From the NCBI GenBank assembly GCA_965224825.1, contig CBDDAG010000003.1:969414-1033413 (forward strand): a stretch of 64,000 nt of DNA. Reading direction: 5' to 3'. Shown here piece by piece: positions 17,735-35,316 of the stretch (the stretch's first letter is position 1; each line of letters starts with the position of its first letter). The position numbers and the translations under genes were made by a program. The notes beneath the pieces were generated by a model. The model was not told where the DNA came from. It saw only the letters and a list, made by a program, of their open reading frames with translations, and searched no databases. This DNA comes from Gammaproteobacteria bacterium (GTDB taxonomy: Bacteria; Pseudomonadota; Gammaproteobacteria; CAJXQU01).

Positions 17735-19126
17735 GTGTTTCACAAATCAAAATTACTAAAGTTATCATTGGCGAGTATTTTCCTCGTAAACATAAGCGGC
17801 GGGGTTGCTGCTGATCAGGGTGCAGAAAAGACCCACGAATACATGCTGGAGAATGGTCTGAAACTGATCGTTCAGGAAGATCATCGATCGCCGGTTGTCG
17901 TGACGCAAGTCTGGTACAAAGTTGGTGCGAGTTACGAGCACGAAGGCATTACCGGATTATCCCACATGCTCGAACACATGATGTTCAAAGGCACGAAGGA
18001 TCTGGAGCCGGGCGAATTTTCACGGATCATTTCCGAAAATGGTGGCCGCGAAAATGCTTTCACCAGCCGCGATTACACGGCATATTATCAGCAACTGGAA
18101 AAATCCCGTCTGCCGGTAAGTTTCAAACTGGAAGCTGATCGCATGCGTAACCTGATCATTTCAGATGAAGAGTTCCTCAAAGAAAGAAAAGTCGTCACCG
18201 AAGAACGTCGTATGCGAACCGACGACAAGCCAACATCTTTGGCCTACGAAAAATTACAGGCCGCTGCGTTTCAAACCAGCCCGTATCGAAATCCGGTGAT
18301 CGGTTGGATGGCGGATATCGAACATTACGAACCGCAGGATATGCGCGACTGGTACGGCATGTGGTATGCACCGAACAACGCCACGGTTGTGGTCGTTGGC
18401 GATGTCGTTCCGGAAGCCGTGCATCAATTAGCGATTAAACATTTTGGGCCTTTGAAACCGGAAAAACTGGCCGTGTTGAAAGATCGACCGGAGATCCCGC
18501 AAACGGGTGAAAAACGATTAGTCGTTCGGGATACTGCTCGAGTTCCTTATTTGTTGATGGGCTATAAAGTCCCTTCACTGGTTCAGGCGCTTGCTGATGA
18601 ATCTATTTCCGAAAAAGAAATATACGCGCTAGAAGTTCTGGCGGGAGTTCTTGATGGTGGCAGTAGTTCACGTCTGACTAAAAACCTGATCCGCGGACAG
18701 GAAATCGCCACCAGTGCCGGTGCGGGTTATAGCATGATGTCGAGACTGGAAACTTTGTTCTTTTTCGACGGAACACCAGCGCAAGGTCAGACGATCGACG
18801 CTCTGGAAAAAGCGATCCGATCCGAGATCGAGAAAGTAAAAAATGAACCGCTGGATGAAAAGGAAATGGCCAGAGTGAAAACACAAGTGATCACCGGCGA
18901 TATTTATGAAAAGGATTCTGTTTATTATCAGGCGATGATCATTGGATCACTGGAAACAATTGGACTCGACTGGAAAATTCGTGATGAATATGTCGGCAAA
19001 GTTCAGGCCGTAACCGCAGAAGAAGTTCAGGAGGTTGCGCGGAAATATCTACTGGATGATCACCTGACGGTGACAATTCTTGAACCGCTACCCGTTGAAA
19101 ATAAAACCGCATCAGTCGATCACTAA
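17735..19126 (+). CDS. M16-family zinc peptidase (active subunit, HxxEH)
   Basis: Signal peptide plus inverted zinc motif …GLSHMLEHMMFKGT…. Confidence 0.8.
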   Translation: MFHKSKLLKLSLASIFLVNISGGVAADQGAEKTHEYMLENGLKLIVQEDHRSPVVVTQVWYKVGASYEHEGITGLSHMLEHMMFKGTKDLEPGEFSRIISENGGRENAFTSRDYTAYYQQLEKSRLPVSFKLEADRMRNLIISDEEFLKERKVVTEERRMRTDDKPTSLAYEKLQAAAFQTSPYRNPVIGWMADIEHYEPQDMRDWYGMWYAPNNATVVVVGDVVPEAVHQLAIKHFGPLKPEKLAVLKDRPEIPQTGEKRLVVRDTARVPYLLMGYKVPSLVQALADESISEKEIYALEVLAGVLDGGSSSRLTKNLIRGQEIATSAGAGYSMMSRLETLFFFDGTPAQGQTIDALEKAIRSEIEKVKNEPLDEKEMARVKTQVITGDIYEKDSVYYQAMIIGSLETIGLDWKIRDEYVGKVQAVTAEEVQEVARKYLLDDHLTVTILEPLPVENKTASVDH

Positions 19127-19134
19127 TAAAAGAA

Positions 19135-20460
19135 ATGAATAATATGAAATTTTTAATTACCAGCCTTTTTCTATTTTTAGCCAGCGCAGTACAAGCCGGC
19201 CCCGCGATCCAAACCTGGGAAACCAGCAATGGTGCAAAAGTATTTTTCGTACCCGCACCAGAATTGCCGATGGCAGATATCCGTGTCGTCTTCGATGCGG
19301 GCAGTGTTCGCGAAGGTGAAAAATGGGGACTGGCTGCTTTAACCAGCGGCATGTTAGACGAAGGCGCGGATGGTTTGACCGCCGAACAGATCAGCGAATA
19401 TTTTGAAGATGTTGGTGCGCAAATGGGCAGCGGATCTTTGCGCGACATGGCTTTTGTTAGCGTGCGAACGATCACCGAGCCGGCGAATTTTGATCCGGCG
19501 CTGGAAGGGCTGGCAAAAGTCATCAGCAAACCAGATTTCCCACAGGCGGCTTTTGAACGTCAGCAAAAAAGAACACTGATCGGGCTGGAGCAGAAAAAAC
19601 AATCACCATCATCAATCGCAACGGATGCCTTTTACGAAGCCGTTTATGGCGATCACCCATACGCGCATCCAACCAGCGGCAACGAAGAAACGGTCAAGAG
19701 TTTCACCCGTGATGATCTGGTGACCTTTTATAAAGAATGGTACGTGGCGAAAAATGCCATGATCGCGATCGTTGGTGATCTAAGCACTGAACAGGCAAAA
19801 CAAGCGGCAGAAAAAGTCATCGGACAATTGCCCGTCGGAAAAGCCGCGCCATGTATTCCGCCAGTAAAAGATCTAACCGAAGAAAAAATCATCAAGATTC
19901 CATACCCATCATCACAAACAAGCATCTTCGTCGGACAGCCCGGAATGAAACGTGGCGATGCGGATTATTTTTCACTCTATCTTGGCAATCATTCTCTCGG
20001 TGGCAGCGGACTGGTTTCAAGACTCAGCGACGAAGTGCGTGAAAAACGCGGACTCTCTTATAGTGTTTACAGCTACTTCGCACCCATGGGTGAAAAAGGC
20101 CCCTTCATGTCCGGCATGCAAACCCGCAACGATCAGACGGATGAAGGCGTAAAAGTGCTGAAAGAAACCATCGCGAAATATATCAACGAAGGCCAGACGG
20201 AAAAAGAATTCGCCGCATCGGTAAAAAATATTACTGGCGGATTTCCCATGCGGATTGATAACAACGGCAAGATTGTCGAATATTTATCCATGATCGGATT
20301 CTACGATCAGCCGCTGGACTACCTCGATACTTTTATCGGCAAGATCGAAGCTTTGACAATTGATCAAACCAGAGATGCGATGAAACGCAGACTGGATCCG
20401 AATAAAATGGTTACAGTGATCGTTGGTGGCAGTGTAGAAAAACCAGCTAAAGGATCATGA
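19135..20460 (+). CDS. M16-family peptidase (non-catalytic partner subunit)
   Basis: Signal peptide and M16 fold-like length. Lacks HxxEH. Adjacent to the active subunit. Confidence 0.7.
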   Translation: MNNMKFLITSLFLFLASAVQAGPAIQTWETSNGAKVFFVPAPELPMADIRVVFDAGSVREGEKWGLAALTSGMLDEGADGLTAEQISEYFEDVGAQMGSGSLRDMAFVSVRTITEPANFDPALEGLAKVISKPDFPQAAFERQQKRTLIGLEQKKQSPSSIATDAFYEAVYGDHPYAHPTSGNEETVKSFTRDDLVTFYKEWYVAKNAMIAIVGDLSTEQAKQAAEKVIGQLPVGKAAPCIPPVKDLTEEKIIKIPYPSSQTSIFVGQPGMKRGDADYFSLYLGNHSLGGSGLVSRLSDEVREKRGLSYSVYSYFAPMGEKGPFMSGMQTRNDQTDEGVKVLKETIAKYINEGQTEKEFAASVKNITGGFPMRIDNNGKIVEYLSMIGFYDQPLDYLDTFIGKIEALTIDQTRDAMKRRLDPNKMVTVIVGGSVEKPAKGS

Positions 20461-22138: not shown

Positions 22139-22441
22139 TTATGTTTCTAAAAGTTTCTCCTGAGCATCCATACGCTTATGTAAGATCCGAACAATCTCTA
22201 TTTGATCATCACTTAAACATCGATAAAAAATAAGATGACTAGCATTGGGGAATTTTTTATAGCCAGGTTTAATCAAGTCACATTTAATTCCGACATCGGG
22301 AGTTTCGGCAAGCATGTGGAAAGCATCATCAAACTGACGAACATAAATTTTTCGTTGCTCTTTTCCCCACTTTCGCTGTGTGTAAGCAGCTATAGATTTC
22401 AAATCAGCTAGAGCTGCATGGGTTAAAATAAATGTTCCCAC
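22139..22441 (-). CDS. parE: ParE/RelE-family toxin
   Basis: 100 aa with a RelE/ParE-fold pattern. Start overlaps the stop of upstream parD. Confidence 0.7.
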   Translation of the reverse strand: MGTFILTHAALADLKSIAAYTQRKWGKEQRKIYVRQFDDAFHMLAETPDVGIKCDLIKPGYKKFPNASHLIFYRCLSDDQIEIVRILHKRMDAQEKLLET

Positions 22442-22680
22442 TAACCGAGTTCTTCATCAAGTTCATTCATTAGACTTTCGTAACTGTATTCAGCCGTTCC
22501 ACTTTTTTCACCTTCTTCAAGCAGGTGGCGGAGCGTTGCGATTTTGCTATCGTTATCTTCAAGCATTCTAAGGCCTGCACGTATAACCTCGCTTGCAGAG
22601 GCGAAACGACCTTCGTCCATTTTCTGTGCAATAAAACCATCGAAATGATCGCCAAGAGTAATGCTGGTATTCTTTGCCAT
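22441..22680 (-). CDS. parD: ParD antitoxin (RHH/CopG family)
   Basis: MAKNTSITLGDHFDGFIAQKMDEGRFASASEVIRAGLRMLED… is a classic ParD pattern. Confidence 0.75.
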   Translation of the reverse strand: MAKNTSITLGDHFDGFIAQKMDEGRFASASEVIRAGLRMLEDNDSKIATLRHLLEEGEKSGTAEYSYESLMNELDEELG

Positions 22681-25238: not shown

Positions 25239-26003
25239 TTGGAGGGTTTGAGCATGAAGACAACATTTCTTTTTCTCGCACTATGGTTTTCTCTTATCGC
25301 TTATGTACAGGCGGAACCACAAACATTTAGCAGTAATGACACCCGGACAAATTTAATCGAACTGTATACATCGGAAGGTTGTAGCAGTTGTCCTCCGGCT
25401 GATCGTTGGCTGAGTAAGTTCAAAAATGACGATCGCTTATGGAAAGAGTTTATCCCTGTCGCTTTTCATGTGGATTACTGGAATTATATTGGTTGGAAAG
25501 ATCGATTTTCTGAAGCTCAATATGGCCAGAGACAGCGACGTTATGCGGAAGGAAATAATCTAAGCACGGTTTATACGCCCGGCGTGATCTTGAATGGAAG
25601 CGAATGGCGATCTTTACAGGATAAGCGTGCACTCAGCCTTGATAAATCAAATGTAGTTGGGATGTTAAATGTAGGTGTTGATGGTGACAAAGTCATGGCT
25701 ACGTTTCTTACTGGCAAGAAAAATAAACCGGCCTATCTAAATGTGGCTGTATTGGGCTTTGATCTGATCACCACGGTTGAAGCAGGTGAGAATCATGGAA
25801 GAAAACTGGAACATGATTTTGTTGTGCTTGGTTATCAGAGAACGGTAATGAAGGCATCTGAGGAAGGCTATGCGCTGACAACAAAACTTCCAATGAAGAT
25901 TGAGCCTGCTCCTAAAACTGGATTGGCGGTCTGGGTGGATTACGGTAAGGATCTAACACCAGTGCAGGCTACAGGTGGTTGGTTGGCTGTTGCGAATAAC
26001 TAA
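25239..26003 (+). CDS. Secreted DUF1223-family protein (thioredoxin-like CxxC)
   Basis: Signal peptide. …ELYTSEGCSSCPPAD…. Confidence 0.55.
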   Translation: MEGLSMKTTFLFLALWFSLIAYVQAEPQTFSSNDTRTNLIELYTSEGCSSCPPADRWLSKFKNDDRLWKEFIPVAFHVDYWNYIGWKDRFSEAQYGQRQRRYAEGNNLSTVYTPGVILNGSEWRSLQDKRALSLDKSNVVGMLNVGVDGDKVMATFLTGKKNKPAYLNVAVLGFDLITTVEAGENHGRKLEHDFVVLGYQRTVMKASEEGYALTTKLPMKIEPAPKTGLAVWVDYGKDLTPVQATGGWLAVANN

Positions 26004-26845
26004 GTTTCTTCATCATCTGGTTCTTTTAAAACGGCATGAGTTACCAGTAGAGAAAGCAGACAATAAGCCGTGAAGAAATAAACACCCAGATCAGTTTCTG
26101 CTCGCGTAAAGTCCTGCGTGTCTAAAGCAAAAATAGAAATCAAAATCGCAACAACAAACACATCCGCCATTGACCATTTTCCTAACAAATGAATCAGGTC
26201 GTGCGCTTTCTTGTGTAAAGAAGGAGCAACATTAAACAGGTTCATTCCAACAACGCTCATTTTTAGAAGTGGTGTAAAAATACTAAACAAAGCGATCAAA
26301 CCGGCAATGATCAAATTGCCATGAGTAAACAAACCATGCACCGTAGAATAAATACTTTTCGCTTCGTATTTAAAAACTACTTCACCTAAAACGGGGAGCT
26401 CTTTATATGCGGTCATTTGCATCATCGGTGTGATCAGACCAACGATCAGACACAATATAGAGACTAACAAAACGTGTCGCCAGAAACGGTTTGCATTATT
26501 TGTGTTGTGAGAGAGGAAAAATTGTATTACTAACCACACAAGAGATACTGCTAAGAAGACAATCGAAAAATACTGTGCCTTATTTTTTTCAGCGTCCGCT
26601 TGCTCAATTAGCAGCCTATGTTTTTCTACGCGCTCAGTTGCACCTTCATACAAAGAAAAACTAATTGTTTCGGCAATTTCGGCCAGGGCAAGATCAACAC
26701 TACCTTCCATATCCATCGCTTCAGCGATCTGAGTATTCAGGTCAATACTATTATTACTGTGCTTACAAACGAAAAGGGCGGCTGCTATTAGAAACAGATA
26801 AATAATAATATTTATTGAAAACCAGATAGTTCTATTCGCTTCCAT
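26000..26845 (-). CDS. PqiA-like inner-membrane protein (single PqiA module)
   Basis: Polytopic membrane protein. …GKWSMADVFVVAIL… resembles the PqiA signature. Confidence 0.45.
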   Translation of the reverse strand: MEANRTIWFSINIIIYLFLIAAALFVCKHSNNSIDLNTQIAEAMDMEGSVDLALAEIAETISFSLYEGATERVEKHRLLIEQADAEKNKAQYFSIVFLAVSLVWLVIQFFLSHNTNNANRFWRHVLLVSILCLIVGLITPMMQMTAYKELPVLGEVVFKYEAKSIYSTVHGLFTHGNLIIAGLIALFSIFTPLLKMSVVGMNLFNVAPSLHKKAHDLIHLLGKWSMADVFVVAILISIFALDTQDFTRAETDLGVYFFTAYCLLSLLVTHAVLKEPDDEET

Positions 26846-27432
26846 CAGTGTTGTGTTCCGTAATATCGATAGTGCCCAGTGATCGTATATTTAAAAAGAA
26901 TGTCATCCATCTTTGGGCCGAGACCAATGTTGTGGACGATCATGGGGCGTTTTTTATTCGTACTTAATTCATCAACAACGATACCGATGTGGGTCATATT
27001 ATTGGGTAAAACCCAGCTCACAATATCTCCGGTAATATAATCTTCAGGATCACGACTTTTTGCAAGAGATTGACCTTTCCTTGTGAAGAAAGTTTGCAAA
27101 TTCGGTACTCGTCTATGATCAATATTGGTATCGGTTTTTGTCAGCCCCCAATTGTTAGGATATTTAGAAAAGTTACTTTTCATATCCTCATGCACTTCTT
27201 TTTGCAGATCGATTCCAACGGTTCGATATGCTCGGATCACGACATCTGTACAAACACCAAACATGGCTGGAAGATCGCCGCCAGGATAATCAAGTTTCCG
27301 ATAAGCGCCATTATAGATCACGATATGAGAAGTTCTTTCGATTGCCGCATCAGATAATTTTTGTTTGAAGTCTTCAGCGGTGGATGTTGTGGCGAGAGAG
27401 GTTAGAAATAAACTGATCAATAATTTTTTCAT
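26845..27432 (-). CDS. Secreted DUF1287-family protein
   Basis: Signal peptide. …VIYNGAYRKLDYPGGDLPAMFGVCTDVVIRAYR…. Confidence 0.5.
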   Translation of the reverse strand: MKKLLISLFLTSLATTSTAEDFKQKLSDAAIERTSHIVIYNGAYRKLDYPGGDLPAMFGVCTDVVIRAYRTVGIDLQKEVHEDMKSNFSKYPNNWGLTKTDTNIDHRRVPNLQTFFTRKGQSLAKSRDPEDYITGDIVSWVLPNNMTHIGIVVDELSTNKKRPMIVHNIGLGPKMDDILFKYTITGHYRYYGTQH

Positions 27433-28754
27433 TCACTTTCCTTTTGAATAAATGCTTCTGCCCGCTTAGCCATTTCATTATCTGGATCAAAATCCTTAGC
27501 TCTTTGCAGGTTTTTTCTGGCAAGCTCTATCTTACCCTGTTTTGCATAGCCGATGGCTAGCGTGCTTTTCACATTGGCATAAGTTGGATCGGGAAGCATT
27601 TGATAGCGTCGATCATTGAGTAATTTGATGCCTTCTTCCAGCTGGCCTGCTTCGATCAGAATTGATCCGCGAGTGGATCGAATCGCCAATTCCCACGGAA
27701 CCAGATTAAACGCCGCTTCAGATAATTCCAAAGATTCTTCTAACAATTCTGGATCATTGATCCGGTAATTAGCATAAGCAATATTGTTCAGAAATATTCC
27801 TCGCTCAAGTTCAGAAATTTCTTTATCTATAATAATTTCTCTAAATATTAAACGTCCTTCCTTGAAATATCCTTGCTCAAGCAGTGCAACACCTAATATA
27901 TTTTTCAGGTGTCGATCATCCGGGTATTGATCTAATCCTTCCTCAGAAAATGTTTGCGTTATGTCATAATCATGATGTTGTAACGCTGCGAAGGCTTGAC
28001 TATAAATCCCCGAAAGTTGGTAGCTTTCAATTTCTGCCGCTTTCATAAAAGGTGTTGTTAATAACTTTCCGCCATCGCTCCAGAGCCTCCCAACCGAAGA
28101 GTTAAATTGAAAAGGTAGTAAGTTGATGCAACCAGTGACAAAATTAGATAAGAATATAATGGGTAAGATAGCCGCCTCATGTAAAAAAGCATTCATGAAT
28201 TTTTCGTGACCTATTTGCTGCCAGACGAGCCACGCGATCAGCAGGTTTATTAAAGGCCCTGCCGCCGTTGTGATCATGACCTTTGTACGAAAAAACGATG
28301 ATGCTCCTGGCAGATAAAATGTAAGCCCTCCTGCCGGGACTTTCTTAAGATCTAGGTAAGCGCCCAATACTTTTTTTGATAAAATATTTTTGCCACGACC
28401 AAAATTGATCGCAATTACTTTTTGCCCCGTTATCCAGGCTGCTAGAGCATGCCCTAGTTCATGAAAAATAGTGGTGAAAAAAGACACGATGAAAAACAGA
28501 GCAATGTTGATTAAAAGCCAACCAATACGAACTGTTGCTGCGGAATCTACATAGACAAGAAACGAGCCTAAGATGATAAGCGCAGGAAAATGAAACTTAT
28601 ATTCTCTCAGTGCATTGGAATCATATTCATAATTATGACAGGTGACACAGATCGTTTTACTTTTCTTGAATAAACTATTTTCTGTGACAAAACCTTCTGG
28701 AAGTGCGGAATGTGCGCCACAATTTGAACATGTTTTTGTGCTTATAATGGTCAT
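27429..28754 (-). CDS. M50/site-2-protease-like membrane metallopeptidase with N-terminal zinc ribbon and C-terminal TPR repeats
   Basis: CSNCG…CVTCHN zinc ribbon. TM helices with HExxH (…FHELGHALAAW…). C-terminal TPR-like repeats. Confidence 0.55.
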   Translation of the reverse strand: MTIISTKTCSNCGAHSALPEGFVTENSLFKKSKTICVTCHNYEYDSNALREYKFHFPALIILGSFLVYVDSAATVRIGWLLINIALFFIVSFFTTIFHELGHALAAWITGQKVIAINFGRGKNILSKKVLGAYLDLKKVPAGGLTFYLPGASSFFRTKVMITTAAGPLINLLIAWLVWQQIGHEKFMNAFLHEAAILPIIFLSNFVTGCINLLPFQFNSSVGRLWSDGGKLLTTPFMKAAEIESYQLSGIYSQAFAALQHHDYDITQTFSEEGLDQYPDDRHLKNILGVALLEQGYFKEGRLIFREIIIDKEISELERGIFLNNIAYANYRINDPELLEESLELSEAAFNLVPWELAIRSTRGSILIEAGQLEEGIKLLNDRRYQMLPDPTYANVKSTLAIGYAKQGKIELARKNLQRAKDFDPDNEMAKRAEAFIQKESE

Positions 28755-28843
28755 TCAGATCAAATTAATTAGAAAGTTTATTCATAGTTTGCCGATAGTT
28801 TAATCGAAGATATTCAAAAAAATACATAACAAAGGTAATAAAC

Positions 28844-30889
28844 ATGGCGCAGGAAGTTCATCTGGATAAAGAACAAATTGATCAACTAGAAGAATATTAT
28901 CGACAAGGCCTGTATCTCAAGGCCTATGAACAAACCTCAGAGCTTGGCCACATAAAGCATTGGCGCGGCGAGAAAGGGCGAATCCTTGCTGGCCGATTAG
29001 CCTACAATCTCGGTGGACACCGCCTGGGTTACCTTCTGCATTATCGCGCATGGAAAGAACATCCTGAATCTGGCGAGGCCATTTATTTTTATGCGCGTGC
29101 GCTGGCAACTGTGCGTGGAGCGTATCGAGCTTTGCGTTTTATTCGTGAAACAGGCGATCTTCCAGACAACACTTCCAAAGAAAGAAAAGCCGAATGGCGA
29201 GCTTTTGAAGCTTATCTTCTGGGTCGTTTTCGGGACTTTGATAATGCAGAAAAACTGATCGCGGAAGCAAAAGAAATTGATCCGGATAGTAATTGGATCG
29301 AGCTGGAACGAGCCAGCTTGTACGAATTTCAGGATCGTTATGACGATGCACTAGAAGTGACCACCGCCGTATTGGAAAAATCTCCGTGGTATCGATCGGG
29401 CGTTCAACATCATGCGCAACTGCTTCAATCCAGAGGGCGTGATGATGACGCGCTAAAACTGCTTACAGAAGCGATGAATCATATTGAGAGTTCAGGTGTT
29501 GCCGCACAGTGTTTACAGTTGCAGATCGAATTAAAACAATATCCTGAAGCTTTAAAAAATCTTGATCTCTACGAAAAATTGACACCTTTAAAAGACAAGG
29601 GCGAGAAACAATGGATTGCCGGACGACGTTCGGATCTCGCTTATTTTATGGGTGATCTTGATCAGGCGATCAGTCATGCTGAAGATGAAGGACGACCTTT
29701 TTATACGCATCTTGCAGAAAAACTGAAAGAGCCTGGCGATAATAAATCTGTGCGGCTGGGTGTGGAATTTGTCAAACAGCATCATATGACTTGTGGCCCG
29801 GCGACGCTGACTTCGATCGCGCAATATTGGGGACGTGAAGTGAACCAACTCGATGTAGTCGAGGACATCTGGTACGACGGCACTTCCGAATATAGCGAAA
29901 GGCAATGGGCGGTCAAAAATGATTATATTGTCCATGAATTTACATTGACTTGGGATTCGGCGGTTGCTTTGCTGGACAAGGGAATTCCTTTTGCACTTTC
30001 TACAGTTGAGCCGGGATCAGCACATTTGCAAGCCGTGATCGGTTATGACGAAGCGCGAGGTGTTTTTCTGGTGCGTGATCCGGGAACCCGATCTACGACA
30101 GAATTTTTTGCTGAAAAAGCGCTGGAGTTTTATGCATGGACTGGCCCTCGGGCGATGGTTTTAATTCCCGCTGACAAGGCTGATCTGTTAGATGGTATCG
30201 AGCTTCCGGATCGAGATATTTATGATCGTTATTTCTGGATCAAAGCGGCGTTGGAAAAAAATGATCGTGCTGCAGCTTCTGCTCATATTGAAGAAGCTGA
30301 AAAACGCTGGCCTGATCATCGTTTGCTACACGTGGCGAACCGATCGATTGCGATCTATGACGATAACGAAGCACGCATTCTTGAAAATACGGAAAAACTT
30401 TTAGAACTATTTCCTGGCAACATTAACTACCTGATGAGCAAACAACAGTCGTTGGGGAATCTTGGGCGGCGAAAAGAACAGCAGGCTTTTGTTGATGAAG
30501 CCTGCGGTGAGTCCAACGAGCATTCCATTTTGTTAATGCAAAAAGCGCAAATGTTGAGCGACGATGCGCGTGAATTTGATACGGTGGAAGAAATTTTACT
30601 CAAGCTGATCCGTTGGCAGCCACAAAATTCGGAAGCCTATTTTTTACTGGCTTATGTGCGCCGGGAACAAAATCGTTTTGATGAATCTATCGAATTATAT
30701 CGGATCGTTTCCTGTCTCGAAGACAAGGTTGAACGCTATGTGAGTAATTATTTCAAAGCGCTGCGTTGTCGTAAACGTGGTGAAGAAGGGATCGCATTTC
30801 TGAAAGATCGCTTTGATCGTTTTGGTGATAAATCTGCATTATCCGGCGATCTCTTTATGCCGTGCTTACGAGTGGTTGGATCAGGATAA
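28844..30889 (+). CDS. TPR-repeat protein with central papain-like peptidase C39-type domain
   Basis: …QHHMTCGPATLTSIAQYWG… (Q-x-CG-x-A-x-L…G Cys motif) and …SAHLQAVIGYDEARGVFLVRDPG… (His/Asp region), flanked by TPR repeats. Confidence 0.55.
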   Translation: MAQEVHLDKEQIDQLEEYYRQGLYLKAYEQTSELGHIKHWRGEKGRILAGRLAYNLGGHRLGYLLHYRAWKEHPESGEAIYFYARALATVRGAYRALRFIRETGDLPDNTSKERKAEWRAFEAYLLGRFRDFDNAEKLIAEAKEIDPDSNWIELERASLYEFQDRYDDALEVTTAVLEKSPWYRSGVQHHAQLLQSRGRDDDALKLLTEAMNHIESSGVAAQCLQLQIELKQYPEALKNLDLYEKLTPLKDKGEKQWIAGRRSDLAYFMGDLDQAISHAEDEGRPFYTHLAEKLKEPGDNKSVRLGVEFVKQHHMTCGPATLTSIAQYWGREVNQLDVVEDIWYDGTSEYSERQWAVKNDYIVHEFTLTWDSAVALLDKGIPFALSTVEPGSAHLQAVIGYDEARGVFLVRDPGTRSTTEFFAEKALEFYAWTGPRAMVLIPADKADLLDGIELPDRDIYDRYFWIKAALEKNDRAAASAHIEEAEKRWPDHRLLHVANRSIAIYDDNEARILENTEKLLELFPGNINYLMSKQQSLGNLGRRKEQQAFVDEACGESNEHSILLMQKAQMLSDDAREFDTVEEILLKLIRWQPQNSEAYFLLAYVRREQNRFDESIELYRIVSCLEDKVERYVSNYFKALRCRKRGEEGIAFLKDRFDRFGDKSALSGDLFMPCLRVVGSG

Positions 30890-33827
30890 AGAAGCTGAAA
30901 ATGCACTCCTTAAAGCACTTAATTCCCGACCAGATGATCCCGATTTACTTTTGTTCGGATCAGACTTTCTGGCGCGTCACAGTAAGTTTGATCAAGCGCG
31001 TGCTTTGCTGGAACGAGCCAAAGGAAAATGTCAGGAATTGCGCTGGCACGTTGAACAGGCCGATTTGGCGGATTATGAAGGTGAACTGAGTAAATCACTG
31101 GAATATTGGGAACAGGTTTTGGCCGCTGATCCGATGCATTTCCGAGCGATCCGTATGACAACTCGATTATTGTCTGAGACTAAAGATCGCCAGGCGGCTC
31201 TGAATTTCCTCGAACGGAAAAAAGATCAATTTCCTTATCACCACGACATTCAGAGCTTATGGGTAGATTGGCTGGATCAGGCTCCGTTATCTGAAAAAGG
31301 TGCGGCTTTGCGTCGATTGCTGGAATTAAATCCGCAAGATGATTGGGGTTTCCGGGAACTGGGACGGGTGTTGGGACAACAGGATCGTTTTGATGAAGCT
31401 TATGAAAATCTGGAAACAGCCCGACAACTTGATCCGACTAATGCCAGCTATTACAACCTCGTTGGTGAACTAAAAGAACGCCAGGGAAATATCAATGAAG
31501 CGATCGAATCTTATCGTGAAGCATTAAAATTAAATATTGATAATGATTTTGCCATGCGTGCTTTATTACGTTGCAGCAACTCAAACGATGCTAAAAAAGA
31601 ACAGCTTGAGTTTATTCGCCAGCAGTTGATCGAGCAGGTTACTCTGGGTGATGGTTTGATGTCATTTCAGGCATTAGCCGGCGATATTTTACAGCCAGAA
31701 GAATTGCTTAAAGAACTGCACAACGCAGTCGAACAAAGGCCTGATCTATGGAATGCCTGGGCTGCGATCAGTCGGGAGTATATGGATGCCGGTCAGTTAG
31801 AAGAAGCCTTGAAATATAGTAAAGAAGGCACGGATCGTTTTCCTTTGTTGCCTCGCTTATGGCTGGATCAGGCAAGAATTTATCGCTACATGGGCGAGTC
31901 GGAAGAAGAGAAAAGATGTCTCGAAAGAACCATGGAACTGGCTCCATCATGGAGCACGGCGATCCGACAGCTTGCCGAATATCACGAAACTCGTGGCGAT
32001 TATGCGGCTTCAAAAGCGATCATGGAAAGTGCGCTGACACGGATCCCGCTTGATCCATATTGTCGTGGTTTTCTGGCCGATGCATTGTGGCACTTGGGCG
32101 AACGTGATCAGGCGTTGGTTGAAATTGCTCGTGCGATAGAACTTGATCCGGAATATGACTGGGCATGGAGTGCGCTGGATCGTTGGGCAGATATTCTGGA
32201 ACAACCGGATCTGGCTGAACAAACCGCCAGAAAAATGGTGATGAACAAGCCGGGTGATGCTGATCTGTGGTGTGTGCTGGCCAGAATGCAGGACGATCCG
32301 GAAGAGAGATTAAGCTCGCTGGAAAAGGCTATCGAACTCAGCCCACGTCTGGTTGATGCGCATGAACAAAAGATTGTGATCCTGTGTCGAATGGAAGAAT
32401 ACGACAAAGCACGGGCTGCGGTAAATCATCCAGGCTGGAATGGAACTCCGCCGATGTCGATTCGTGGACATGGCCCCTGGATCAGTCGACAGGAAGGTGA
32501 TCATGATCGCAGTATTGCCGAAATGGATGCTTTGTTAGAGCAGGAGCCGACCTATTATGACGGTTTCCGGATGCTGGCTGATTGGCATGACAATGCGAAT
32601 AGTTTCGAAGAATATTTATCGGCCAGTCAGAAAATGCTGAAGCTGGATCCAACCAGTCCACACGCCATGTCTTATGTTGGCGATGCGTTGCATGATCTTG
32701 AACGTGATGATGAAGCGATCCCATATTTACAACAGGCAGCTGAACGCGATCCATCTTCGACTCTGGCAAACTTTATCCTGTTCGATATTTTGAAAGAACG
32801 TGATGATGTTCCGGCTATGCAGACCTTGATGGAAAAAATGAAACTGCATATTTTGGATAATAATTTTGTCGTAGCACGAGAAGGATCTCTGGCCGCAAGA
32901 ACGATGGACAAAGAACGGGCGATGGAATGTCTGCAAGAATTGGCGTTCTGTGGGGATGAAAATAGCTGGTTGTTTAATACCTGTATCGGCAGTATGAAAA
33001 GTGCGCGTTGGGAAGCCGATATGATCGAGACGATGGGTGAGTTTATCCAGGAAGAAAACTGCGTTGCTCCCATTGGTCGATATTGGGGCGAGATCGTCAA
33101 TGAGGAAAAAGCCTGGGATTCGCAATTGCCACGATTGAAAAATTCTTTTGATAAGGGCACGCCGGCCAGTGTTCAGGCCATGTCAGAATATCAGGATTTT
33201 GTTGCACTAAATGGATCAAAAAAAGAACACAAAAACCTGATCAGTTCTCTCGGTGAGCAACTGAGACAAAATCCGCTGACCTGGGGATCGGTCATGTATA
33301 GCTTTAGTGTCAATGATGATCTGGATGCTGGTATTAAATGGGCAGGCAATTCCTGGCGCGAAGACTCAGCTGAACGTGGTTGGGGGCTCTACTATCTTTC
33401 GCTGTTACATTGGCAAAAAAAGGATGTTGAGAAAGCACTGGAAGCAGGCCTTCATGGGGTTAATGATAATAATTTTTATATGCACGAGCCGATGTTGGCG
33501 ATGGGTTATTTCTTAACGGACGACGTGGAAAACACCGTGCTCTGGAAAGACAGAATCAATCATCATGCCATGGGCGGATATCAGGACATGCTCAACGATA
33601 CGCTGGAAATGGGACTTATTGCCTATGATCAAAGTCTTGATAATAAAGAGGCCTTGACGGGAATAAAACAAAAGTTAAGCGAGATCAATGAAGTTAAATC
33701 GGATCATGAAGATACTATTTATGAATATGTTCTTGACCAGGTTTTAGACAAGGTTGGTGAAGCTCGTAGCGGTTTCCGTTGGAAAGCCAGCACGTCGATA
33801 TTGAGTGTGAAATCTGCCTGGACCTAA
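30813..33827 (+). CDS. Large TPR-repeat protein, 1004 aa (probably continuous with 28844-30889 through a frameshift)
   Basis: TPR-like repeats throughout. 77-nt overlap in a different frame with the upstream ORF. Confidence 0.55.
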   Translation: MIVLVINLHYPAISLCRAYEWLDQDKEAENALLKALNSRPDDPDLLLFGSDFLARHSKFDQARALLERAKGKCQELRWHVEQADLADYEGELSKSLEYWEQVLAADPMHFRAIRMTTRLLSETKDRQAALNFLERKKDQFPYHHDIQSLWVDWLDQAPLSEKGAALRRLLELNPQDDWGFRELGRVLGQQDRFDEAYENLETARQLDPTNASYYNLVGELKERQGNINEAIESYREALKLNIDNDFAMRALLRCSNSNDAKKEQLEFIRQQLIEQVTLGDGLMSFQALAGDILQPEELLKELHNAVEQRPDLWNAWAAISREYMDAGQLEEALKYSKEGTDRFPLLPRLWLDQARIYRYMGESEEEKRCLERTMELAPSWSTAIRQLAEYHETRGDYAASKAIMESALTRIPLDPYCRGFLADALWHLGERDQALVEIARAIELDPEYDWAWSALDRWADILEQPDLAEQTARKMVMNKPGDADLWCVLARMQDDPEERLSSLEKAIELSPRLVDAHEQKIVILCRMEEYDKARAAVNHPGWNGTPPMSIRGHGPWISRQEGDHDRSIAEMDALLEQEPTYYDGFRMLADWHDNANSFEEYLSASQKMLKLDPTSPHAMSYVGDALHDLERDDEAIPYLQQAAERDPSSTLANFILFDILKERDDVPAMQTLMEKMKLHILDNNFVVAREGSLAARTMDKERAMECLQELAFCGDENSWLFNTCIGSMKSARWEADMIETMGEFIQEENCVAPIGRYWGEIVNEEKAWDSQLPRLKNSFDKGTPASVQAMSEYQDFVALNGSKKEHKNLISSLGEQLRQNPLTWGSVMYSFSVNDDLDAGIKWAGNSWREDSAERGWGLYYLSLLHWQKKDVEKALEAGLHGVNDNNFYMHEPMLAMGYFLTDDVENTVLWKDRINHHAMGGYQDMLNDTLEMGLIAYDQSLDNKEALTGIKQKLSEINEVKSDHEDTIYEYVLDQVLDKVGEARSGFRWKASTSILSVKSAWT

Positions 33828-33845
33828 TCAGAGATTCCTTAACGG

Positions 33846-34394
33846 CTATTTTCCAAATGCTGTCTCTGGAAATTTTTCAGTGATCAGCATGATTGGTTTT
33901 TGTTCGGCAAAAATTCGATAAGTTCTGGAAATAAGAGTTGAGTCAGCAGATTGATCAAAATGTTGACCAAGCTCTTCCGCGGGTTCTTCTTTGCAGGAAA
34001 GAATTTCCCTGAAGGTTTCTGTTTTTGCTTCGATCATCAGTCGCCCAAGTGGCTTATCTGTATTGATCAAACCTTCCTGCAAAGAAGCATCGAGTTGTTC
34101 CGGAACGAGAATAGATTCTGCATAAATATAATTTGTTTTTGAATCATTCCCTTTTAATAAAATCTTTCTCACCAGAATTTCTGTGCCCGATCGTATTTCA
34201 AGATAAGGGATATCAACATCGCTGATCCGCTTTTCCTGAAACAACTTAATAAGATTGATAGGCTCCCAGAACTGCGCCTCAAGAATTTCTGTAACCGTTC
34301 CATCAGTTGTCAGCAGAATACGTTGAAAAGGCGATAGCTCTTTCAGATCAAGATCGCTGTGTGATAAAGATTTTTCGAGATCAATGCGTAACAT
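33846..34394 (-). CDS. Chorismate-lyase-like (UbiC/DUF98 fold) protein
   Basis: …ILLTTDGTVTEILE… and …TDKPLGRLM… resemble UbiC core motifs. Confidence 0.45.
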   Translation of the reverse strand: MLRIDLEKSLSHSDLDLKELSPFQRILLTTDGTVTEILEAQFWEPINLIKLFQEKRISDVDIPYLEIRSGTEILVRKILLKGNDSKTNYIYAESILVPEQLDASLQEGLINTDKPLGRLMIEAKTETFREILSCKEEPAEELGQHFDQSADSTLISRTYRIFAEQKPIMLITEKFPETAFGK

Positions 34395-34402
34395 TTTAAG
34401 CC

Positions 34403-34609
34403 TTAATAGTGAGGAGGACGTTCATCAACCTCTTTCCCATCAGAGCCAGCATCTGTAAGTGCCCTGGCTTGTTCGAGCAAATGTCGATAACCATTGTCGA
34501 GTTGATCAAGACGTTTTTGTTGTTCAAAAATAGTTTTGTTGAGTTCCTGAATCAGATCTTCCTGATAGGCAAGTTTTGTTTCGAGTTCGATTAGGCGTTT
34601 TTCAGTCAT
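34403..34609 (-). CDS. slyX: SlyX-family coiled-coil protein
   Basis: 68 aa. MTEKRLIELETKLAYQEDLIQELN…. Confidence 0.7.
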   Translation of the reverse strand: MTEKRLIELETKLAYQEDLIQELNKTIFEQQKRLDQLDNGYRHLLEQARALTDAGSDGKEVDERPPHY

Positions 34610-34620
34610 AACGGGATTAT

Positions 34621-34783
34621 ATACCCGTCATCATTGGAATTGCGGTTTCTTTAAGTACGTATACTGAATGGGCTGGCAAGGCATATTATCAAAGTAATAG
34701 TGGTTCTATTGCTTGATAATATAACGCAGCCAGCACATTCAGTATGCGTGCTAAAAATCTGCAACTCCAATGATGACGGGTAT
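34621..34783. repeat. MITE-like palindromic element of about 163 bp (23-bp terminal IR ATACCCGTCATCATTGGAATTGC, 1 mismatch, plus an internal IR)
   Basis: Read in sequence between slyX and the ICMT-like gene. Confidence 0.55.
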
Positions 34784-34860
34784 TTATCATGAAGTATTAC
34801 TAGACAGTCTATAAATGGTTTAGAATTTAGAAATGACGTGTCAAACAGCCTGTTGCAAAT

Positions 34861-35316
34861 ATGCTAGAACTTAAAATCCCGCCACCCGTTTATATGTTGC
34901 TCACGGCGGGCGGAATGTGGTTGGTGGATCGTCTCCTGCCTGTGGCCGAAATAATTCCCACTCCCTGGAACAAGCTCGGTTATTTGTTCGTCATTATTGC
35001 GCTGTTTACCGATGGAACATCGTTGATGCAGTTTTTCCGTAGTCATACGACGATGAATCCGATTCGACCGGATAAGGCAAAAAATCTGGTGACGACGGGC
35101 ATGTATCAGATCACCAGAAACCCAATGTATGTTGGACTCCTGTTTTTGTTGATCGGCTGGGGATTTCTGTTGGGCAGTTTTATGCCTTTTCTTTTATTGC
35201 CGATCTTTATTCTACTGATCACAACGCAACAAATTATCCCGGAAGAAAGAATTCTGGAAGAAAAGTTTGGCCAGCAATATCGAGACTATAAAGATTCCGT
35301 TAATCGCTGGTTTTGA
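34861..35316 (+). CDS. ICMT/PEMT-family membrane methyltransferase
   Basis: …TTGMYQITRNPMYVGLLFLLIGWGFLLGSF…. Confidence 0.6.
   Translation: MLELKIPPPVYMLLTAGGMWLVDRLLPVAEIIPTPWNKLGYLFVIIALFTDGTSLMQFFRSHTTMNPIRPDKAKNLVTTGMYQITRNPMYVGLLFLLIGWGFLLGSFMPFLLLPIFILLITTQQIIPEERILEEKFGQQYRDYKDSVNRWF

Follow-up and report, generated by a model that had tools for sequence, protein, structure and literature searches.

Separase and TPR-CHAT (Csx29 of type III-E CRISPR) each carry a thiol protease within a large scaffold of helical repeats, to which a substrate or regulator binds. The giant protein that we describe here, 1660 residues of TPR interrupted by a single C39-like domain, resembles these enzymes in concept only, as an analogy: they are caspase-like members of clan CD, whereas the domain in question is predicted to be papain-like and of clan CA. 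Compared with TPR-CHAT, the giant gene also has no CRISPR or defence context. It lies in core synteny, and PADLOC defence models returned nothing for it beyond generic TPR similarity (weak matches to PDC-M71B, E 4.7e-6 to 1e-3).

Among the closest known systems are the stand-alone C39-like peptidases of the Peptidase_C39_2 type (PF13529), for example a Bacillus anthracis protein (PDB 3erv). C39_2 proteins are single-domain peptidases associated with transporters (PMC10318531), whereas the giant protein carries its domain inside a TPR solenoid of about 1500 residues and conserved length, is predicted to be cytoplasmic and has no conserved neighbour. From ComA, PCAT1 and LahT (PF03412) it differs in having no ABC transporter, no transmembrane (TM) region and no double-glycine (GG) leader substrate, and structural alignments with C39 bacteriocin-processing domains show 15-26% sequence identity. 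The best NCBIfam match, the PA2778 family of cysteine peptidases (NF033920; aa 307-553, E 1e-12), is alike in that it spans both the peptidase domain and the TPR after it, but the score is 48 bits against a cut-off of 150, and the model has 255 positions where the giant protein has 1660 residues.

The giant gene is transcribed divergently from a gene for a second putative protease, M50-TPR. This protein shares with RseP, SpoIVFB and M50B-like proteins an HExxH and an N..P...DG motif placed in TM helices, but it has neither the PDZ domain of the RseP type (no Pfam or NCBIfam match) nor the CBS domain of the SpoIVFB type, and it scores 19.9 bits against the RseP model TIGR00054, for which the cut-off is 147. 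Its site-2 protease core is extended by a zinc ribbon at the N-terminus and by a probably cytoplasmic TPR domain at the C-terminus.

Both genes lie in a stretch of 64,000 nucleotides from a gammaproteobacterial contig (the window). A sequence-only reading of this DNA had reported three open reading frames, at 27429-28754 on the minus strand (441 aa) and at 28844-30889 (681 aa) and 30813-33827 (1004 aa) on the plus strand, all of which are present as described, and had proposed that the two proteases could form one system. The reading that we prefer, and to which we assign a probability of about 0.7, is that the two genes are functionally independent, one a giant gene for a single soluble cytoplasmic protease of 1660 aa, the other an accessory M50-TPR gene.

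27429-28754, minus strand: gene for a 441-aa zinc-ribbon / M50 (site-2-protease type) / TPR membrane metalloprotease, assigned by Pfam and profile matches
28755-28843, no strand: divergent intergenic region between the M50-TPR gene and the giant gene, 89 bp
28844-33827, plus strand: gene for the 1660-aa TPR / C39-like / TPR protein, read in the window copy as two ORFs (681 aa, 1004 aa)

Results

One giant gene, broken by one base

The ORFs at 28844-30889 and 30813-33827 are a single gene with one extra base.

30836-30844, plus strand: frameshift site, GCATTATCC in the window, with one base extra (A30838 or A30841) relative to relatives

The ORF is uninterrupted, at 1656-1660 aa, in the relatives L004, L006 and L093 and in the nearest outgroup, L013, and four strains share a gene length of exactly 4983 nt. 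Removing A30838 in silico from the window copy likewise yields an ORF of 1660 aa with zero internal stops. Where the window reads GCATTATCC at the junction, L004 has GCTTATCC, L006 has GCTTACCC and L093 has GCATTTCC, and four distant homologues are continuous through RFxxKSxxPxxTLxWAY. It had previously been left open whether the downstream ORF merely follows the first or is fused to it by a frameshift. The intact ORFs in relatives settle this in favour of a frameshift fusion and against a separate downstream gene, and the 1004-aa "giant TPR protein", earlier counted as a third component of the locus, is actually the C-terminal 60% of the protease gene. In annotation, the 681-aa and 1004-aa ORFs should be entered as one frameshifted gene.

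The extra base at 30838-30841 reflects an error in the assembly or, alternatively, a mutation of very recent origin. If the frameshift is genuine, the source strain may be without an intact protein, and we would be dealing with a true pseudogene, or with a two-piece gene that makes a 681-aa fragment and possibly a re-initiated C-terminal TPR protein. We put the chances of this a little short of even. The extra base lies outside any homopolymer run, the gene callers' products for the contig are of 681 aa and 983 aa, and internal breaks are also found in other MAGs, at 9 of 80 family loci, all of which would be in keeping with a real break. However, past the frameshift the window lineage has acquired 4 non-synonymous and 53 synonymous substitutions of its own, the same as or below what is seen in strains with an intact gene, so that there is no sign of relaxed selection past the break. 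Judged from these substitutions, the giant gene is still under purifying selection in the window lineage. In addition, the four nearest strains are all intact and identical in length, and 4 of the 9 broken loci carry "MFD" isolate names; if these are long-read MAGs, indel errors would be a likely cause of their breaks.

A predicted papain-like site inside a TPR solenoid

The most conserved part of the giant protein is its central domain.

29744-30163, plus strand: C39-like papain-fold cysteine peptidase domain, about aa 301-440
29777-29794, plus strand: codons from Gln312 (putative oxyanion hole) to Cys317 (putative nucleophile), QHHMTC
30023-30079, plus strand: codons from His394 (HLQAVIGYD) to Asp412 (RDPG), putative general base and third triad residue

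The C39-type Cys motif and the His/Asp block that had been noticed in the 681-aa ORF are both present (QHHMTCGPATLTSIAQYWG at aa 312-330 and SAHLQAVIGYDEARGVFLVRDPG at aa 392-414), and Pfam places TPR matches on either side of the domain. Peptidase_C39_2 (PF13529) matches aa 306-413 of this ORF with 50.0 bits, well above its gathering cut-off of 24, and a PF13529 domain is also recorded in relatives. At E <= 0.01 the only peptidase models to match the ORF are PF13529 and PF12385 (C70); the ABC-linked C39 model, PF03412, has no Pfam match at that threshold. The Gln and the Cys do not vary in alignments of 18 and of 16 family members, and across 67 full-length sequences each is conserved to at least 90%. 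His394 and Asp412 are invariant in the aligned family members. The spacing from His to Asp is 18 residues, comparable to the 16 residues of ComA and papain. An AF2 model of the central domain (pLDDT 89) finds PCAT1 and ComA in Foldseek at E ~4e-6. On the strength of the model, the domain is a C39-like papain fold belonging to clan CA, of the alpha+beta kind with the Cys on its N-terminal helix and the His and then the Asp on its beta sheet, that is, the fold of a peptidase rather than a non-protease fold, and the set of Gln312, Cys317, His394 and Asp412 suggests peptidase activity.

Where in the cell this activity would be exerted is indicated by hydropathy: the maximum over 19 residues is only 0.9, from which we conclude that the giant protein has neither a TM segment nor a signal peptide. 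It is thus predicted to be soluble and cytoplasmic.

The enzymes related through PF13529 include some that do not cleave proteins, namely cell-wall endopeptidases and acyltransferases. Since relatives thus have other targets, proteolysis of a cytoplasmic protein by the giant protein is only our inference. One might imagine instead that the domain acts on some other amide or thioester, as an isopeptidase, a peptidoglycan-peptide amidase, an enzyme that deconjugates a small modifier, or an acyl or peptidyl transferase, with the TPR array serving as an assembly platform. PF13529 domains are reported from phage endolysins, and the close relationship of BtrH_N acyltransferases to the C39 and C70 families (PMC10318531) also favours this idea. 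We nevertheless think it unlikely. The giant protein carries no export signal, which makes the mature cell wall an improbable substrate, and genes for modifiers, ligases or biosynthesis are not conserved nearby; the Gln/Cys/His/Asp set is typical of hydrolytic papain-like enzymes, although it does not discriminate among these chemistries.

A large family of near-constant length

Relatives of the giant protein occur in 318 species genomes, from Planctomycetota, Verrucomicrobiota, Acidobacteriota, Pseudomonas, Myxococcus, cyanobacteria and others. The family also counts 779 clusters at 50% identity (E <= 1e-30), in which the peptidase domain always falls at approximately residues 250-520. At 66 of 80 family loci the gene is a single ORF of 1646-1981 aa (median 1673 aa), the extra length of longer members consisting of additional TPRs only, and the alignment across phyla is nearly free of gaps. 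Length that is almost free of indels across phyla, together with strong purifying selection, argues for a precise structural role for the family.

No neighbouring gene family is shared by more than 6 of 78 giant-family loci. The core synteny in which the gene sits is conserved across genera and is not that of a biosynthetic cluster. Family members go by the database label "C39 family peptidase" and nothing more. Our literature search found no characterised member of the family and no paper on either protein architecture, and what is left standing is a large family of TPR proteins of about 1660 aa, each with what looks from its residues like an intact papain-like active site.

M50-TPR is a site-2 protease relative

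The features previously noted in the 441-aa ORF, a zinc ribbon, an HELGH motif and C-terminal TPR, are all found.

28638-28730, minus strand: N-terminal CxxC...CxxC zinc ribbon, aa 9-39 (CSNC at aa 9, CVTC at aa 36)
28449-28463, minus strand: HELGH, aa 98-102, a zinc-binding motif located where TM helix 2 ends, with H98, E99 and H102 invariant
28071-28124, minus strand: second M50 motif, N211-L-L-P214 ... D227-G228, located where TM helix 4 ends
27432-28037, minus strand: C-terminal TPR domain, about aa 240-441, from Pfam TPR matches

Both M50 models in Pfam exceed their gathering cut-offs (Peptidase_M50B, PF13398, 31.7 against 26 bits; Peptidase_M50, PF02163, 31.4 against 27.2 bits), and a profile built from 7 M50-TPR homologues matches the solved RseP orthologues 9j82, 7w6y and 7w6x with E from 6e-6 to 6e-4. 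In these 7 homologues, which reach down to 30% identity, the zinc-ribbon cysteines C9, C12, C36 and C39 are invariant, as are N211, P214, D227 and G228. The protein has four hydrophobic helices; HELGH comes directly after the hydrophobic segment at aa 79-97, and the second motif, of the type from which site-2 proteases draw their third zinc ligand, follows that at aa 195-213, with a spacer of 12 residues from P to DG that is longer than in the canonical NxxPxxxxDG. In an AF2 model (pLDDT 88) the TM helices and the C-terminal TPR are present, a beta-hairpin separates helix 2 from helix 3, and short beta strands lie at the zinc ribbon. Profile and motif conservation together identify M50-TPR as a genuine site-2-protease relative. 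With four TM helices and a zinc ribbon on the cytoplasmic side, its C-terminal TPR should be cytoplasmic too. The family looks rare: a word-indexed search gave 12 matches, and there are 3 metagenome loci. Pfam detects no sigma or anti-sigma gene adjoining M50-TPR in the window.

Two further genes follow in the same direction, and M50-TPR itself exists in two old allelic forms.

26000-27432, minus strand: DUF1287 and PqiA-like genes, co-directional with M50-TPR, with stop/start overlaps at 27429-27432 and 26845
27600-28750, minus strand: block of an ancient, divergent allele that spans zinc ribbon and M50 membrane core, identified from nucleotide identity and dS

Pfam assigns the two neighbours with E 2e-68 (DUF1287) and 6.5e-18 (PqiA), and the trio recurs in L004, L005, L006, L011, L093 and L094. 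Given the overlapping stop and start codons, M50-TPR, DUF1287 and the PqiA-like gene are probably one operon. Within the allele block, nucleotide identity between the window and L004 is 66-76%, as opposed to 90-97% in the flanks; dS is 2.29 (dN/dS 0.10), as opposed to 0.22 in the adjacent DUF1287 gene. Two allele classes can be distinguished, 63-65% identical over aa 1-330 and 92-94% identical over aa 331-441. The gene illustrates how two old alleles can be swapped through recombination in a neighbourhood that is otherwise nearly identical.

Do the two genes belong together?

The pair is flanked, according to Pfam, by genes for DUF1287, PqiA-like, DUF1223, GGT and chorismate-lyase-like proteins. 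The proposal made from the sequence was that M50-TPR and the giant protein constitute one proteolytic signalling or effector-processing module with a shared divergent promoter, in which one protease might process or regulate the other, or both might act in turn on one substrate. Such a module would be a new system. In its favour, the divergent order with about 89 bp between the genes is held in at least five strains or species (the window, L004, L006, L011 and L093), both proteins have TPR domains that are probably cytoplasmic, and both genes are under purifying selection. A scan of 27300-34500 for sigma-70-like promoters gave 13 matches where shuffled sequence leads one to expect 14.2, and hence no excess.

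Several observations argue against the module, and we consider it quite improbable. First, all five cases belong to a single shallow clade in which the whole neighbourhood is common, so that the test of co-occurrence largely fails. Second, the nearest outgroup has matching gene order on both sides (DUF1223, PqiA and DUF1287 on one, chorismate-lyase-like, PEMT, RsgA and DeaD on the other), yet M50-TPR is absent from it. Third, M50-TPR is found within 10 kb of the giant gene at 0 of 78 distant loci, and no C39 gene adjoins 3 distant M50-TPR relatives, one of which is on a long contig and two on contigs of less than 3 kb. Fourth, a divergent allele took the place of the M50 core, yet over its N-terminal 665 aa the giant protein kept 97.6% identity. 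If the two had evolved as partners we might look for co-variation, and this swap shows none. The M50 gene is instead overlapped with DUF1287 and PqiA-like, suggesting translational coupling in that direction, and the TPR domains of the two proteins are alike only generically. Taken at the level of sequence, the evidence points to an adjacency specific to this lineage. The lack of adjacency elsewhere leaves room for joint action within this clade, where the two proteins may cooperate. Among the 78 distant loci, the sole other M50-type match is at L079, where an ORF of 560 aa lies roughly 5 kb upstream of the giant gene.

Discussion

On our preferred reading of two independent genes, the giant protein would represent a widespread stand-alone family in which a fixed-length TPR solenoid holds, some 300 residues from its start, a C39-like peptidase domain that is presumed to be catalytically competent. 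The repeats would form a scaffold for substrate recognition that captures a specific cytoplasmic protein or peptide and brings it to the thiol active site within, where cleavage would be limited, and no transporter would take part. M50-TPR would be an accessory intramembrane zinc metalloprotease, with zinc ribbon and TPR both facing the cytoplasm, whose gene heads the DUF1287 / PqiA-like operon; it would adjoin the giant gene because it was placed in the divergent intergenic region within one sublineage.

The remark that no ABC exporter or substrate peptide lies nearby holds for the window: Pfam finds no ABC exporter flanking the pair in the 64 kb, and a regular-expression scan of all its small ORFs, a weak test confined to the window, finds 0 with a double-glycine leader. 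A role for the giant protein in classical C39-type maturation, in which it would cleave the double-glycine leaders of bacteriocins, RiPPs or quorum-sensing peptides encoded elsewhere, is very improbable indeed, given the Pfam matches to C39_2 and C70 rather than PF03412, the lack of a fused ABC exporter or of a conserved ABC gene nearby in 78 loci, the absence of GG-leader ORFs just mentioned, a location outside biosynthetic clusters, and some 1500 conserved TPR residues that leader removal would leave unexplained.

A broader proposition, which is possible though we lean against it, is that the giant family constitutes a previously unstudied group of scaffold-regulated cytoplasmic cysteine proteases that carry out a specific conserved cleavage event. 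Recruitment of the newly adjacent M50-TPR as a partner on the membrane side, in this gammaproteobacterial clade, is a smaller, additional possibility. If the proposition were true, the giant proteins might be a conceptual bacterial analogue of separase-type or TPR-CHAT-type proteases. The family's putative structural role is testable in tractable hosts. A fixed-length solenoid with an embedded papain-fold site, free of partner genes, extends across at least eight phyla, and culturable organisms that carry a giant-family gene include Pseudomonas nitroreducens, Metapseudomonas otitidis and Myxococcus species.

A single reading frame for the giant TPR protein

The sequence-only reading of this region had proposed two TPR-decorated proteases, divergently transcribed from one promoter region, together with a separate giant TPR protein. 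All three ORFs behind that proposal were recovered:

27429-28754, minus strand: 441-aa ORF, zinc-ribbon / M50 / TPR membrane metalloprotease (the M50-TPR gene)
28844-30889, plus strand: 681-aa ORF, C39-type Cys motif at aa 312-330 and His/Asp block at aa 392-414
30813-33827, plus strand: 1004-aa ORF with TPR-type matches only (Pfam, NCBIfam)

Comparison with relatives shows that the 681-aa and 1004-aa ORFs are one gene, the third ORF belonging to the second. A single 1660-aa gene occupies the same divergent position in L004, L006 and L093 (close relatives reached via the M50 protein), and L013, the nearest syntenic outgroup, carries a 1656-aa gene there. The junction between the two ORFs, with the motif RFxxKSxxPxxTLxWAY, is uninterrupted in the distant homologues P0001, P0002, P0004 and P0014. 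At the DNA level, the window reads GCATTATCC at the junction, compared with GCTTATCC in L004, GCTTACCC in L006 and GCATTTCC in L093; removing A30838 in silico restores a 1660-aa ORF with zero stops, and the giant gene has one and the same length, 4983 nt, in each of the four strains compared. The suggestion that the 1004-aa ORF might be frameshift-fused to its neighbour is thus borne out by relatives with one ORF, and the separate giant TPR protein falls away.

Downstream (3') of the break, window-lineage substitutions comprise 4 non-synonymous and 53 synonymous changes, which is not above what is seen in strains with an intact gene. Given this lack of excess non-synonymous change, the break would be either an assembly error or else very recent. 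The extra base lies outside any homopolymer run, and a database look-up of the 681-aa product returned no entry. Programmed frameshifting is ruled out, since close relatives are all in frame at the junction and the breaks of other family members fall at differing positions. Such internal breaks, or out-of-frame ends, occur in nine fetched loci (L022, L025, L034 [identical to L001], L047, L055, L056, L075, L078 and L079), four of which have isolate names starting "MFD", and in the proteins P0004, P0012 and P0013, all family members from metagenome-assembled genomes; in these they may be a matter of indel errors in long genes, not of biology.

A widespread family with a papain-like core

The main object of interest that is left is a widespread family of ~1660-aa proteins with a TPR / C39-like / TPR architecture. 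When the 270-aa peptidase region was searched exhaustively with HMMER, 779 clusters at 50% identity were recovered (E <= 1e-30), the matched stretch corresponding in nearly all of them to residues 250-520 of a protein of ~1650-1700 aa. A genome scan with the family pattern placed relatives in 318 species-level genomes, with hosts including Planctomycetota, Verrucomicrobiota, Acidobacteriota, Armatimonadota, cyanobacteria, Myxococcus, Nitrospira, Betaproteobacteria and several Pseudomonas; the loci L051 and L050 come from the tractable hosts Pseudomonas nitroreducens TX1 and Metapseudomonas otitidis. With the 681-aa ORF as query, a word-indexed homologue search (only 8000 candidates scored) badly underestimated the size of the family: it missed even P0033, the 1660-aa, 99% identical cluster representative of that very ORF. 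TPR words probably crowded true relatives out of this search.

Of 80 fetched loci, 66 carry the giant gene as a single reading frame of 1646-1981 aa (median 1673), and 67 full-length sequences align nearly gap-free over all 1660 positions. Conservation is highest at aa 301-440, where aligned members share an invariant Gln312, Cys317, His394 and Asp412, and lowest in the last ~330 residues. The least conserved patch of the gene, 32800-33400 (aa ~1320-1520), has 76-82% nucleotide identity between strains, is poorly conserved across phyla too, has no Pfam match and looks helical-repeat-like. Longer family members (1960-2431 aa) add TPRs only and hence offer no domain-fusion clues. The protein lacks any hydrophobic segment (the top 19-residue hydropathy being 0.9), so it should be cytoplasmic.

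The 681-aa ORF scores 50 bits against Peptidase_C39_2 (cut-off 24) with TPR matches on either side (Pfam), in agreement with the C39-type Cys motif and TPR-flanked His/Asp block originally proposed. Sequence search alone yielded no solved relative of the domain; its structural neighbours include staphopain, the phytochelatin-synthase-like Alr0975, streptopain and AvrRpt2, with Foldseek concordant. The giant protein combines a papain-like fold and an intact invariant Gln/Cys/His/Asp set with a fixed-length TPR solenoid that surrounds them, and is soluble, stand-alone and under strong purifying selection. C39_2 proteins have been described as single-domain, transporter-associated peptidases only (PMC10318531), and our literature search found no published work on either the giant C39-TPR or the M50-TPR architecture.

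We suggest that the C39-like domain would act as an active thiol hydrolase, with the TPR array recruiting and positioning what would be a specific cytoplasmic substrate. Isopeptidases, deconjugases and transferases are also among the structural neighbours, so a chemistry different from protein endoproteolysis is conceivable, an alternative that we consider unlikely. A transporter-coupled leader peptidase is very unlikely: there is no ABC partner, no PF03412 match and, as the sequence-only reading had anticipated for the vicinity, no double-glycine leader ORF within the 64-kb window. A role as a defence system is dismissed, PADLOC matches being at TPR level only and the giant gene lying in conserved core synteny.

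Gene order around the two proteases

The divergent genes are separated by an intergenic region of 89 bp. Pairing was assessed from the C39 side by calling ORFs in all fetched loci and searching these with the window's M50 core and an HMM of 12 M50-TPR homologues. Among these loci, the M50-TPR gene was present only in L004, L006 and L011; L008 matched as well but had been reached via an M50 homologue, not via the C39 family, and the planctomycete locus L079 has a different M50-type ORF of 560 aa some 5 kb (approximately) upstream of the giant gene. When the giant gene's four neighbours to either side were clustered across 78 loci, no family reached beyond 6 of them, and the clusters that did form represent synteny inside single clades. 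A small conserved upstream ORF is dismissed on the same count; L001 and L002 each have an ORF without Pfam match (124-133 aa) upstream.

The outgroup L013 is particularly informative. It shares the window's gene order to the left and right of the giant gene (coaD, fdx, GGT, DUF1223, PqiA-like and DUF1287, then the giant gene, then chorismate-lyase-like, PEMT, RsgA and DeaD), with 61-80% identity in the flanking proteins, yet DUF1287 is followed directly by the giant gene and the M50-TPR gene is missing. Comparing L013 8535-9250 with window 26845-28843, we found no M50 remnant by tblastn and only 18 shared nucleotides, covering the DUF1287 ribosome-binding and start region; insertion and clean deletion both fit. 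Nor does a C39-TPR gene lie next to the distant M50-TPR members, which are P0025 (30% identity) on a contig of 22 kb, and P0024 (43%) and L096 (29%) on contigs of less than 3 kb, where immediate neighbours only are in view. The TPR domains of the M50-TPR and giant proteins resemble each other no more than is generic to the repeat.

Outside the window, and among the loci compared, adjacency is limited to L004, L006, L011 and L093, close relatives with the whole neighbourhood in common. Absent from L013 and from distant loci, the pairing is, judging by gene order, a lineage-specific accident rather than a conserved system, and the idea of a two-protease module with a shared promoter is not sustained.

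The M50-TPR protein, its probable operon and its alleles

The 441-aa protein has CSNC at aa 9, CVTC at aa 36 and four hydrophobic helices; HELGH (aa 98-102) ends helix 2 and NLLP...DG (aa 211-228) follows helix 4. Its matches to Peptidase_M50B and Peptidase_M50 exceed the Pfam gathering thresholds, with TPR matches thereafter, so that the zinc ribbon, HELGH-bearing M50 core and TPR array initially noted are all upheld. Homologues with as little as 30% identity all retain the four zinc-ribbon cysteines, H98, E99, H102, N211, P214, D227 and G228, and in the region of the HExxH helix the family profile hits RseP orthologues of solved structure (9j82, 7w6y and 7w6x). An AlphaFold2 model (pLDDT 88) has the expected transmembrane helices, with the HExxH helix followed by a long beta hairpin, and then TPR helices; a fold search with the full model was uninformative, TPR matches being dominant. 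Pfam and NCBIfam revealed no PDZ or CBS domain. Because there are four transmembrane helices and the zinc ribbon is N-terminal, both soluble domains (zinc ribbon and TPR) should be cytoplasmic. With 12 matches in the word-indexed search and three loci only in a metagenome scan with the family profile, the family looks rare.

The gene lies at the head of a compact unit:

26000-28754, minus strand: M50-TPR, DUF1287 and PqiA-like genes with overlapping stop/start codons

Stop and start codons overlap at both joints, between M50-TPR and DUF1287 in the ATGA at 27429-27432 and between DUF1287 and the PqiA-like gene at 26845, and the trio is kept together in six related loci (L004, L005, L006, L011, L093 and L094). 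Codon overlap and joint retention suggest that the three genes likely form a minus-strand operon.

A secondary curiosity is an old allele pair at the M50-TPR gene. When the window is compared with L004, identity is 93-99% in the flanking proteins and only 72% in the M50-TPR protein. The divergence is confined to a sharp-edged DNA block, 27600-28750 (aa 1 to ~380), with 66-76% identity against a background of 90-97%. Two allele classes are found, one comprising the window, L006, L093 and P0021, the other L004, L011 and L095; they are 63-65% identical over aa 1-330 and 92-94% in the C-terminal TPR (aa 331-441). Over the block dS is 2.29, compared with 0.22 in the adjacent DUF1287 gene, and dN/dS is 0.10. 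A dN/dS this low with saturated dS rules out positive selection on the M50 core and indicates old, functional alleles that recombination has moved. Over its N-terminal 665 residues the giant protein is 97.6% identical between the window and L004, so the M50 allele swap occurred without co-variation in the supposed partner. Speculatively, balancing selection might act on the membrane-exposed part, for example if it served as a phage or bacteriocin receptor. A link between these alleles and the variable patch at 32800-33400 is dismissed, that patch varying in all strain pairs.

Other features of the window

Scans of the window found no Rfam families or tRNAs. Two further gene pairs were recorded:

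22139-22680, minus strand: ParD/ParE-like type II toxin-antitoxin pair, just upstream of coaD
17735-20460, plus strand: tandem pair of M16 (insulinase/pitrilysin-type) peptidases, 463 and 441 aa, also syntenic in L004

The former looks like a ParD/ParE pair in that its 100-aa ORF matches ParE_toxin (Pfam, E 1.2e-18); the counterpart of the neighbouring 79-aa ORF at the same place in L004 is recorded as ParD_antitoxin. Nothing seen here ties the M16 pair to the two TPR proteases. Finally, a strain-variable spot lies at ~34394-34861 (L004 2891-4245), between the chorismate-lyase-like gene and PEMT, where L004 adds SlyX, HPP-family and TetR genes (a 1235-nt alignment gap), L093 adds SlyX only and the window has none.
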